Of a stretch of DNA of 64,000 bases, positions 23,481 to 24,635 are shown in pieces. Source of the DNA: an uncultured Eubacteriales bacterium. GTDB lineage: Bacteria > Bacillota > Clostridia > Christensenellales > UBA1242. The notes beneath the pieces are model-generated. The model was not told the origin of the DNA. It was given only the letters and a program-made list of their open reading frames with translations, and ran no database searches. The translations under genes and the position numbers were made by a program. The DNA is taken from assembly GCA_949841245.1 (NCBI GenBank), contig CATKYT010000001.1:10906-74905 (forward strand), written 5' to 3'. Position 1 is the first letter of the stretch; every line of letters begins with the position of its first letter.

Positions 23481-24635
23481 ATGAATGATAAAAATACAAG
23501 CATAAGTGTTTTGTCTGACAAATTTGACCTTTACATGAAAAAAGGCAAACAGGCAAAAGAACAAGGAAACATCGCACTTGCCAAAAGAAATTTTTTGCTG
23601 GCAAGCGAAGTTATGATGCAAATGGCTAAGCAAAGTCAAGGAAAACTTAAAGAAGTGCGAATGGACAGAGCGCGCCGATTGGTGGAACTTACTGACAATT
23701 TAAACAAGAAACCTATTAAAGTGGAAAAAAGCGAAAAACCAAAAGGCGAAAACAATAACTCAGAAGAAGATGAAGATGTAAAAAAATGGCAAACCGCAGA
23801 AGTGCCAAAAATCAGTTTCAGTGATGTTGCTGGGCTTGACGATGTTAAGAAAGCCATTACAATTCGAATGATTAATCCGATTAAATATCCTGACAAATAC
23901 AAAATGTATGGCAAGAAAACAGGCGGTGGAGTGCTTTTATATGGCCCGCCTGGAACTGGTAAAACCATGATAGCAAAAGCCATTGCCAATGAAGTTGGTG
24001 CAAAGTTTTACGCCATAAAAGGTTCTGATATAGTCAGCAAATGGGTTGGCGACAGCGAAAAGAACATCAATTCACTTTTCCAAGAAGCCAACAAACAAGA
24101 CAGAGCAATCATCTTTATTGATGAAATGGACAGTTTGATTGGCAAGCGTGGTGTTGACACACACAACGACAAGCGTGTCAACGAATTTTTGCAACAAATT
24201 GATGGTGTTTCTGGAAGAAATCAAAATTTACTTCTTCTTGGTGCAACCAACAGACCATGGGATATTGACAGTGCAGCAATGCGTTCTGGAAGATTTTCTC
24301 AAAAAATCTATCTTCCATTGCCAGATGCACCAGCCAGAAAATTTATGATTGAAAAGGCACTTAAAGGTGTGCCAGTTGACAAAGATTTTGATGTCAACAG
24401 AGTTGTGGAACAAACTGAACTTTACAGTGGTGCGGACATAGAAGAATTGTGTGACCGTGCAAAGGACGAACCACTTTTGAAGTCAATCGCCACAGACAGT
24501 GTCGTTTTGGTGACTAATTCCGACTTTGACAAAGTGTTGGAAGTTTTGCCACCAAGCGTGACTATGAAAGAATTGAAAGAATTTGAAGACTATAATAATG
24601 AAGTTTCAAGTTACATAAAGAAACCTAAAAAATAA
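23481..24635 (+). CDS. MIT-domain AAA+ ATPase, Vps4/CdvC-like
   Basis: N-terminal three-helix segment ([43 protein letters not shown]). Walker A GPPGTGKT, pore loop [13 protein letters not shown], Walker B [10 protein letters not shown], and [18 protein letters not shown]. Start set at ATG 23481, 9 nt after AAAGGA. Confidence 0.8.
   Translation: [384 protein letters not shown]

Follow-up and report, generated by a model that had tools for sequence, protein, structure and literature searches.

A gene module of uncultured gut Clostridia pairing an MIT-like AAA+ ATPase with an ESCRT-III-like protein: a candidate bacterial variant of the ESCRT-III/Vps4 principle

Organisation of the locus

The window analysed here is a 64,000-nucleotide stretch of the genome of an uncultured Eubacteriales bacterium of the class Clostridia (GenBank assembly GCA_949841245.1, contig CATKYT010000001.1, positions 10,906 to 74,905), with a G+C content of 33%. 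It carries an operon in which the gene of a single-cassette AAA+ ATPase with a divergent MIT-like N-terminal domain directly follows the genes of two small coiled-coil proteins, designated E3a and E3b, the second of which is ESCRT-III-like, and in which a protein with an SPFH domain and zinc ribbons is also encoded. The operon genes from 20591 to 28437 are tightly packed, with intergenic gaps of 0-18 nt (Table 1), and the promoter-like site in front of them agrees with the consensus at 10 of 12 positions and has an extended -10 TG (consensus scan). Our verdict is that the locus represents a bacterial variant of the ESCRT-III/Vps4 principle and that its ATPase is not a Vps4 orthologue. On balance, we favour, with moderate confidence, an active, hexamer-forming AAA+ unfoldase whose MIT-like bundle docks on the C-terminal helices of the ESCRT-III-like E3b and of E3a and which remodels these proteins in a Vps4-like manner.

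Table 1. Features of the operon, of the ATPase, and of the remaining window (positions are those of the window; aa, amino acids; pLDDT, predicted local distance difference test)
Feature	Position	Strand	Remarks
Promoter-like site (TTGCCT, 18-nt spacer, TG, TATAAT)	20530-20559	+	Upstream of operon; consensus match only
Protein with an SPFH domain (Band_7_1) and, C-terminally, two zinc ribbons	20591-21436	+	Pfam
139-aa protein, single N-terminal transmembrane helix (residues 2-20)	21448-21867	+	Transmembrane scan
117-aa helical protein	21867-22220	+	Weak TPR-type matches only
E3a, 209-aa coiled-coil protein	22233-22862	+	
E3b, 198-aa ESCRT-III-like protein	22866-23462	+	
Shine-Dalgarno sequence AAAGGA of the ATPase gene	23466-23471	+	Read from the sequence
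MIT-like AAA+ ATPase, 384 aa	23481-24635	+	
Divergent MIT-like three-helix bundle, residues 8-72	23502-23696	+	
Acidic/polar disordered linker, residues 73-104	23697-23792	+	pLDDT 33-36 (disordered 77-99 in model)
AAA large subdomain	23793-24329	+	
Walker A, GPPGTGKT	23943-23966		Residues 155-162
Pore loop 1, KWVG	24039-24050		
Walker B	24108-24131		
Sensor-1 N257			In AAA large subdomain
Arg fingers within RSGRF	24282-24296		
AAA lid and C-terminal helix, Vps4_C-like	24330-24632	+	
1263-aa Zn-ribbon/transmembrane/GLUG protein, distal operon gene	24646-28437	+	Pfam Glug, transmembrane scan
tRNA gene	8795-8866	+	
SAM (S-box) riboswitch	14480-14586	-	Just 5' of 387-aa reading frame 13331-14494 (-)
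tRNA gene	17223-17295	-	

Domain structure and catalytic motifs of the ATPase

The open reading frame (ORF) named for this protein in the original prediction was borne out; it encodes 384 aa on the plus strand, and all the peptide strings quoted from it are present in the translation (residues 30-50, 60-74, 155-162 (GPPGTGKT), 182-200, 210-219, and 251-282). The ATG at 23481 was preferred to the mechanically called TTG at 23475 because AAAGGA sits 9 nt upstream of the former; the latter lies too near this Shine-Dalgarno sequence and was rejected.

Searches against Pfam detected an AAA domain (E 8.7e-43) and AAA_lid_3 (E 2.8e-7 and 4.3e-8 in separate searches). AlphaFold2 modelling with 32 family members (pLDDT 81) placed N-terminal helices at residues 8-27, 31-51, and 55-72 (pLDDT ~90) and, after the linker, one AAA fold of canonical form, its lid, and a final helix at residues 362-377, with no beta-domain insertion. 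The model and the Pfam matches agree with the three N-terminal helices, the linker, and the single AAA cassette proposed earlier, and the Vps4/CdvC domain order holds in the form of an MIT-like bundle, a linker, one AAA cassette, and a C-terminal helix. No second AAA cassette was found in the 384-aa protein by either approach. The Walker A and B motifs, sensor-1 N257, the arginines R268 and R271 of the second region of homology, and the pore-loop G190 are invariant across the 32 family members, down to 42% identity, and because of this invariance the ATPase is predicted to be, very likely, catalytically active.

Of the two hidden Markov model (HMM) searches suggested for checking the original prediction, that with MIT gave no match, and that with Vps4_C ended at 21.2 bits, marginally below the gathering threshold of 21.3. 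Vps4_C matches 24 of the 32 family members (best E 4.8e-7); judged on Pfam tables that give the best 25 families per protein, it is at most a possible discriminator from Cdc48 D2.

Four divergent orthologues (L027 8004-9488, L030 7995-9452, L033 7986-9581, and L040 7932-9374) are extended at the C-terminus by a further 110-150 aa, made up of a Pro/Ala-rich linker and a beta-rich module (…YVKIGGKNY.C…V.IFGD…), which the ATPase of the window lacks. A 704-aa protein from the Logan assemblies (P0241) consists of two cassettes of this family fused in tandem, with two AAA domains and two Vps4_C matches.

The N-terminal domain

The Pfam MIT HMM does not match the N-terminal domain, and residues 1-103 have no Pfam match up to E 10, which speaks against an MIT assignment; a single-sequence search of the Protein Data Bank (PDB) with this domain returned only a weak TPR-type match. 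A profile of 24 diverse N-terminal domains of the family, searched against PDB sequences, found as its best match the MIT domain 2mpk (chitin synthase), with an E value of 8e-4 and over all three helices, and as its third match the MIT domain of Sulfolobus Vps4 (2w2u); TPR-type sequences were among the weak matches. Aligned by hhalign with a small MIT alignment, the domain matched over 64-68 columns with a probability of 93% (P 3e-7), or of 90.6% when tool-verified sequences only were used, and its score of 39.6 compares with 20.6 for the reversed MIT control and with 11.9 or less for 30 column shuffles. Because the signals of the profile search and of hhalign exceed the reversed and shuffled controls, we call the N-terminal domain, on the evidence of its sequence, a divergent MIT-like domain.

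As a control of sensitivity, the Pfam MIT model does detect CdvC (42.6 bits). It also misses the N-terminal domain carried by the ATPase of Halomicrobium salinisoli, an orthologue (51% identical) of the published Vps4 of Halomicrobium mukohataei. This haloarchaeal domain aligns with the bacterial N-terminal profile with a probability of 70% (P 4e-5) and with canonical MIT at P 1.7e-3. The MIT domain proposed in the original prediction is thus backed by profile comparisons and by the AlphaFold2 model, but not by Pfam.

The ESCRT-III-like protein E3b

E3b begins with MGLFKSK and has a basic N-terminal half and core and an acidic C-terminal half and tail. In its AlphaFold2 model, helices were predicted at residues 7-48, 52-106, 112-151, 161-172, and 179-197 (lengths 42, 55, 40, 12, and 19), and this pattern, together with the charge asymmetry, fits the ESCRT-III layout of a long alpha1-alpha2 hairpin with shorter helices behind it, the model being of low confidence (pLDDT 59). 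The protein ends in a conserved amphipathic helix, ID.ELE.LRKKI (~23400-23459; the tail reads …ESIDKEMEELRKKIESDMN), which is proposed, from its sequence, to be an MIT-binding motif and which we take to resemble the MIM1 consensus without matching it.

An hhalign comparison of E3b with six verified eukaryotic ESCRT-III proteins gave a score of 34.0 (P 2.8e-4, 140 collinear columns), weak in absolute terms, as against 17.0 for the reversed control and at most 19.3 for shuffled ones. In the same test, two proteins of H. mukohataei, assigned by Makarova et al. 2024 to the ESCRT-III/Snf7 family, encoded immediately ahead of Vps4, and used for calibration, scored 34.5 and 34.7. Since E3b equals these published haloarchaeal proteins, it is, at the level of such profile comparison, as ESCRT-III-like as accepted archaeal members.

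Other results weigh against this assignment. The AlphaFold2 model was built on a shallow alignment of 20 sequences, and, although members of the ESCRT-III superfamily make up more than 20 of its best 50 Foldseek matches in PDB (CHMP1B, CHMP2A-CHMP3, CdvB, Asgard ESCRT-IIIB, Snf7, Shrub, Vipp1, and PspA), all of them have E>=0.26 and none is individually significant. Pfam Snf7 and PspA_IM30 do not match E3b at E<=1. Among 120 listed homologues of E3b none carries a Pfam domain, and the E3b family profile searched against PDB sequences found no ESCRT-III protein, only chance matches (S100, ribosomal proteins).

E3a and other proteins of the operon

Like E3b, E3a has a basic N-terminal and an acidic C-terminal half; its N-terminus is hydrophobic and basic (MWLPFKRNKFKK), and the motif IYG...(D/E)ELL(A/S)MFE at 22728-22754 is conserved. 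Any resemblance to ESCRT-III is slight: its hhalign score against ESCRT-III is only 22.9 over 36 columns, weakly above the controls (14.6-14.7), and it matches no Pfam family (MIT, Snf7, and PspA_IM30 included). Nor did the comparisons support the idea that E3a is a PspA protein or a paralogue of E3b, and neither E3a nor E3b resembles Escherichia coli PspA (scores 16.5-18.1). As for the two ESCRT-III-like genes that had been placed upstream of the ATPase gene, both do precede it and E3b can be regarded as ESCRT-III-like, but for E3a the similarity barely rises above the controls. In H. salinisoli (L084), a 225-aa protein encoded upstream of the ATPase weakly resembles E3a in the latter's N-terminal part (P 1.6e-3, 45 columns).

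The protein encoded first in the operon matches the Pfam families Band_7_1 (2.9e-13), Zn_Ribbon_1 (2.5e-14), and DZR (1.1e-10); no hydrophobic or transmembrane segment was found in it by the transmembrane scan. The 139-aa membrane protein has no family match in the HMM library scans. The 1263-aa protein encoded downstream of the ATPase consists of an N-terminal Zn ribbon, ~800 cytoplasmic residues, ~3 transmembrane helices (residues 809-904), and an extracellular region with GLUG repeats, and recalls the large partner with TPR and transmembrane segments reported for other bacterial MIT-Vps4-like ATPases.

Conservation of the gene module

A single scan of 185,579 species genomes of GTDB yielded 42 loci of this family, with ATPase identities from 99% down to 48%; below this value, it found only two-domain archaeal Cdc48 and two other bacterial AAA proteins (L042 and L080), at 35-42% identity. 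The E3b gene lies directly upstream of the ATPase gene in all 42 loci. E3a and the SPFH/zinc-ribbon protein were each found in 41, the exception being L026, where only ~2.4 kb of sequence is available 5' of the ATPase gene. The 139-aa protein is present in most but not all of the loci and the 117-aa protein only in closer relatives, as is the 1263-aa protein, a variable distal member of the operon (21-50% identity) that is absent from more distant loci. In the locus L081, whose ATPase is 45% identical to that of the window, the order of genes is rearranged, and orthologues of E3a (31% identity; hhalign 99.8%), E3b (38.5%), and the SPFH/zinc-ribbon protein (29%) are all present. Because this linkage is kept across the 42 loci and in L081, the four-gene core of E3a, E3b, the ATPase, and the SPFH/zinc-ribbon protein is a co-inherited module.

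In L081 (9358-14644), as in L082, the operon runs on into two large proteins with TPR and TIR_2 domains, which replace the GLUG protein and hint at a role in NAD-linked signalling or conflict. The L081 genome is that of a sporulating Firmicute, with spo0A and spoIVB adjoining the locus.

The ATPases most closely related to that of the window belong to uncultured gut Clostridia, whose labels include Candidatus Caccovivens, Candidatus Coproplasma, Christensenellaceae, and Catabacter; one ATPase (L024) is 99% identical to that of the window and probably belongs to the same species. The surroundings of the locus are chromosomal housekeeping genes, as judged on ORF sizes and N-terminal sequences only, and in many genomes the flanks are conserved, with an SDR gene upstream and an ABC transporter downstream. 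Farther away in the window, a 3796-aa ORF (38981-50371, plus strand) with a signal-peptide- or lipoprotein-like N-terminus presumably encodes a giant surface protein.

Position of the ATPase among AAA+ proteins

The reference sequences of Vps4, VPS4B, CHMP2A, CHMP3, CHMP1B, CHMP4B, CHMP6, and Snf7 were confirmed as exact database entries; those of spastin, katanin, PAN, and FtsH were checked against PDB, and that of CdvC was read from PDB alignments. The Vps4 and ESCRT-III sequences of H. mukohataei were taken from its annotated plasmid and cross-checked in the tables of Makarova et al. The Vps4 motifs given in the original prediction proved correct when compared with the entries of yeast Vps4 (SDLVSKWMGESEK and IIFIDEVDAL) and human VPS4B (SDLVSKWLGESEK and IIFIDEIDSL). 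The K-W-x-G pore loop, considered there to be typical of Vps4, is not diagnostic: archaeal Cdc48 D2 has SKWVGESEKA, and the loop was rejected as a Vps4 marker.

In neighbour-joining (NJ) trees, the bacterial family, together with its paralogue L042, grouped with Vps4, CdvC, spastin, and katanin with 97.5% bootstrap support; the same grouping was obtained from the AAA large subdomain alone (94%) and after a haloarchaeal Vps4-like sequence was added (89%). The family joined Cdc48 D2 in 0% of replicates, nor did it join Cdc48 D1, FtsH, or PAN. Clustering with FtsH, Cdc48, or PAN, which had been named in advance as grounds for abandoning the Vps4 interpretation, was therefore not seen, and neither was the other such ground, an N-terminal domain unlike MIT. 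Membership of the SpoVK/EccA type and of FtsH or PAN was rejected on scores and trees, SpoVK/EccA-type models reaching only ~40 bits. For each of the 14 family members compared, the score with a meiotic-clade HMM exceeds that with a Cdc48-D2 HMM, by 9-45 bits, and the N-x-P-W motif is common to the family, Vps4, CdvC, and katanin. The CdvC model of NCBIfam (NF041006) aligns with the ATPase from end to end (residues 10-373 with profile positions 6-366 of 370).

Other results, however, do not speak for a place within the Vps4 clade. In the NJ trees, the family is a sister of the meiotic group and is not nested inside Vps4/CdvC. Once the 45 nearest database domains, drawn from a library of 1.8 billion proteins, are included, support for joining the meiotic clade decreases to 75%, and the family is placed within a radiation made up of unnamed multi-AAA proteins that have both PW and RxGRF. 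Since these are distance trees of small samples, long-branch attraction is possible. The score of 211.8 bits on NF041006 is far from its cut-off of 650, and the Cdc48 models give ~212 bits as well. The columns that are diagnostic of clades are mixed: seven are as in the meiotic clade, five as in the classical group, and six as in Cdc48 D2. The Arg-finger segment RSGRF is of the RxGRF type found in Cdc48, FtsH, and PAN, and in the second region of homology the family is without the two-residue deletion (RRRF/RSRF) that is shared by Vps4, CdvC, spastin, katanin, and haloarchaeal Vps4. Finally, the highest pairwise score of residues 100-384 is with p97 D2 (199.9 bits), the best 50 Foldseek matches of the model are all p97/Cdc48 (E ~1e-25, rmsd (root-mean-square deviation) ~2.5 over ~280 columns), and only p97-type entries stand at the top of a phmmer search of PDB.

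The rank of p97 is not diagnostic, because a genuine crenarchaeal CdvC used as a control query places p97/VAT directly behind archaeal Vps4. Both the PDB sequence search and Foldseek were swamped by p97 entries, two-domain sums inflating the sequence scores, and per-domain scoring was used instead; a search of 50%-cluster representatives was likewise dominated by multi-AAA proteins, with uninformative cluster names. Scored per domain, residues 100-384 gave 170-193 bits with archaeal Cdc48 D2, 182.8 with yeast Vps4, 165-182 with CdvC, and 155-172 with Cdc48/p97 D1, so that the differences between references are nearly flat.

Altogether, our reading of these sequences is that the ATPase family forms a deep separate lineage beside, not inside, the Vps4/meiotic clade, because RSGRF, the ancestral form of the Arg-finger segment, is retained, the CdvC score is low, and pairwise and Foldseek comparisons rank p97 D2 first; for the same reasons, the ATPase is not regarded as a Vps4 orthologue. 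For the AAA domain, what stands of the Vps4/CdvC identity proposed originally is the grouping with Vps4, CdvC, spastin, and katanin in NJ trees.

The proteins of the above-mentioned radiation (e.g., P0242, P0243, P0264, P0278, P0279, and P0293), the family's closest kin among AAA proteins, are 650-1300 aa long and have NxPW and RxGRF in each cassette; one of them is labelled as a VCP-like ATPase of an uncultured archaeon. The paralogue L042 (214-2717), from a metagenome-assembled genome of Christensenellaceae, is a 382-aa AAA protein with a helical N-terminal domain, PW, and RPGRF, followed by a soluble FtsH-like protein with AAA and M41 protease domains (HEVGH) and no transmembrane segment; no E3 genes are present, and the same type of ATPase thus occurs there with a different set of partners.

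Alternative explanations

The strongest competing explanation, which we nevertheless consider rather unlikely, is that of a general unfoldase or segregase derived from Cdc48 D2 that would act with the SPFH protein in extracting or remodelling membrane proteins in an SPFH microdomain, by analogy with FtsH in HflK/C cages; the N-terminal domain would then serve as a generic adaptor similar to TPR, and the coiled-coil proteins would act as scaffolds, not as substrates. The first rank of p97/Cdc48 D2 in pairwise and structural comparison, the RxGRF segment, the pore loop identical to that of archaeal Cdc48 D2, the TPR-type sequences among the weak N-terminal matches, and the linkage of the SPFH gene to the ATPase in 41 of 42 loci and L081 all agree with it. 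Yet linkage to the ATPase is no looser for the coiled-coil genes than for the SPFH gene, the N-terminal domain aligns with MIT over all three helices with clean controls, CdvC itself ranks p97/VAT next after archaeal Vps4, and in no NJ tree are the family and Cdc48 D2 joined. The second cassette and the CDC48_N domain expected of such a protein are also lacking: CDC48_N, which was detected in archaeal Cdc48 controls, is not among the matches listed for the full ATPase, whose N-terminal domain is all-helical in the model.

A conflict or anti-phage module, in which the ATPase would be a sensor or regulator like IetA or TRIP13 and membrane-active coiled-coil or variable GLUG/TIR proteins would be the effectors, has a small probability. 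The ATPase scores 133 bits with IetA and 57 bits with TRIP13 of PADLOC and 114 bits with IteA of NCBIfam, the distal large protein varies between loci, and two large TPR and TIR proteins continue the operon in L081. The IetA score is, however, well below those of the CdvC and Cdc48 models (~212 bits) and reflects the generic AAA fold; no IetS-like protease is encoded, and PADLOC models match none of the remaining proteins of the operon. With the partner gene absent, IetA and other known defence systems were rejected. The housekeeping surroundings and conserved flanks (SDR, ABC transporter) are not island-like, and E3b has no match in phage records. A phage or plasmid origin is likewise unsupported, plasmid matches to the ATPase all being below 40% identity.

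Equally improbable is a merely superficial resemblance, in which an unrelated helical bundle and ordinary coiled-coil neighbours would serve a lineage-specific process such as sporulation-associated remodelling: the silence of the curated HMMs (MIT, Snf7, PspA), the low-confidence E3b model, the lack of a detected relative of E3a, and spo0A and spoIVB next to L081 would suit it, but the MIT and ESCRT-III profile signals exceed the reversed and shuffled controls, that of E3b equals published archaeal proteins, SpoVK/EccA-type models reach only ~40 bits, and the four-gene linkage persists to 45% ATPase identity.

Proposed mode of action

Domain anatomy and the established biology of Vps4 and CdvC suggest how a Vps4-like remodelling module of this kind would operate. 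E3b, probably together with E3a, would form polymers on the cytoplasmic side of the membrane, where the YdjI-like SPFH/zinc-ribbon protein would help to recruit or organise both proteins. The MIT-like bundle would, most likely, bind their C-terminal amphipathic helices and so recruit the ATPase, which, as a hexamer, would thread the E3 subunits through its KWVG pore loops. Such threading would disassemble or remodel the polymer, as Vps4 and CdvC act on ESCRT-III. We infer from this analogy that the ATPase would work like Vps4 without being a Vps4 orthologue; the cellular role may be membrane repair, vesiculation, or division. The operon would offer a bacterial model of ATP-driven ESCRT-III-type remodelling, and its ATPase looks like an intermediate form, with PW and RxGRF, between Cdc48 D2 and Vps4/katanin/spastin, a point of relevance to the descent of Vps4 from Cdc48 that has been proposed. 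Since the proteins are small and soluble, tail-dependent stimulation of the ATPase and polymer disassembly could be tested directly in vitro.

One could hypothesise further, although we regard it as doubtful, that the family is a bacterial branch of the Vps4/meiotic ATPases that split off before the two-residue deletion and is coupled to a Snf7-type, not PspA-type, ESCRT-III protein and an SPFH/zinc-ribbon protein. If true, the pairing of ESCRT-III with an MIT-AAA disassemblase would predate the archaeal stem, or would have arisen or been transferred across domains in a near-ancestral form, and gut Clostridia would carry a working ESCRT-like membrane-scission machine.

Comparison with known systems

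According to a 2025 review, a Vps4-like ATPase appears to be absent in bacteria, so that PspA/Vipp1 polymers would be regulated otherwise (PMC7619361), and ESCRT systems containing Vps4 have been treated as occurring only in archaea and eukaryotes (Makarova et al. 2024, PMC10936438). In the latter work, the second operational criterion for Vps4 is that its gene adjoins ESCRT-III genes; here, E3b, with its signal weak in absolute terms, is encoded next to the ATPase in 42 loci and in L081. Full-text literature searches found no described operon of Clostridia or Firmicutes with ESCRT-III and Vps4.

With CdvC and Vps4 the ATPase shares the order of MIT, linker, AAA, and C-terminal helix, the pore loop SKW(V/L/M)G(D/E)(S/A)EK, NxPW, IYxPLPD, and 37-41% identity in the AAA region, and, like CdvC, it has no beta-domain. 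Unlike CdvC, it is not matched by Pfam MIT, and it differs from both in the absence of the two-residue deletion, in its low score relative to the CdvC cut-off, and in lying outside Vps4/CdvC in the NJ trees. It resembles the D2 domain of Cdc48/p97/VAT in its top sequence and structural-alphabet (3Di) similarity, in RxGRF, and in the pore loop identical to that of archaeal D2, and is distinguished from these proteins by its single cassette, by the MIT-like N-terminal domain in place of CDC48_N or a double-psi barrel, and by never joining D2 in the trees.

The closest archaeal counterpart is found on the plasmid pHmuk01 of H. mukohataei (L085 5163-7806; Halo_FHA clade), where two ESCRT-III genes (arCOG07402) are followed by Vps4 (arCOG01307) (PMC10936438). 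Both loci encode two ~200-aa proteins and then a 380-410-aa ATPase with a helical N-terminal domain, one AAA cassette, and a Vps4_C-like tail. The haloarchaeal N-terminal domains (L084 5974-7266 and L085) are also invisible to Pfam MIT, and one of them aligns with the bacterial profile better than with canonical MIT; in profile comparison, the haloarchaeal ESCRT-III proteins resemble eukaryotic ESCRT-III as weakly as E3b does. Archaeal Meth_adaptin ESCRT loci, like the operon of the window, also include a protein with SPFH, coiled-coil, and Zn-ribbon regions (PMC10936438). The differences are that the host is bacterial (Clostridia), that ATPase identity is only 28-31%, that the haloarchaeal Arg-finger segment is RRRF/RSRF instead of RSGRF, that E3a and E3b have no direct similarity to haloarchaeal ESCRT-III proteins, and that the FHA/CdvA-like, winged-helix, and adaptin-like partners of euryarchaeal ESCRT loci are missing from the operon.

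Among bacteria, a survey covering phage shock protein (PSP) systems described an MIT and Vps4-like AAA protein followed by a protein with TPR and six transmembrane segments, e.g., in Opitutus terrae (ACB74714.1), snf7 being replaced by the TPR-transmembrane gene, in Cyanobacteria, Bacteroidetes, Verrucomicrobia, and Nitrospirae as well as Planctomycetes (PMC11237479). The same survey reported PspA with a double-AAA protein in Clostridium and lists in its supplement a Band-7 and zinc-ribbon protein in the PspA operon of Bacillus subtilis (PMC11237479). Compared by description only, the O. terrae type and the present operon both have a bacterial MIT-type AAA protein followed by a large membrane protein (here of 1263 aa), and they differ in phylum and in the two coiled-coil genes, one of them ESCRT-III-like, and the SPFH/zinc-ribbon gene that are kept here.

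Because the reviews call bacterial Vps4 absent, the ATPases of the PSP survey lack a Snf7 partner, and the literature searches were negative, we rate the operon, with its MIT-like AAA ATPase, ESCRT-III-like protein, and YdjI-type SPFH protein, as a new variant. The PspA-YdjGHI module of B. subtilis, another Firmicute, differs in having no AAA ATPase and in its polymer, which is a canonical PspA_IM30 protein, whereas E3a and E3b do not match PspA. Like the ESCRT-III-superfamily protein of that module, the ESCRT-III-like protein is encoded here together with a Band-7 and zinc-ribbon protein and a small transmembrane protein, and the SPFH/zinc-ribbon architecture is that of YdjI, which is known to recruit PspA to the membrane.

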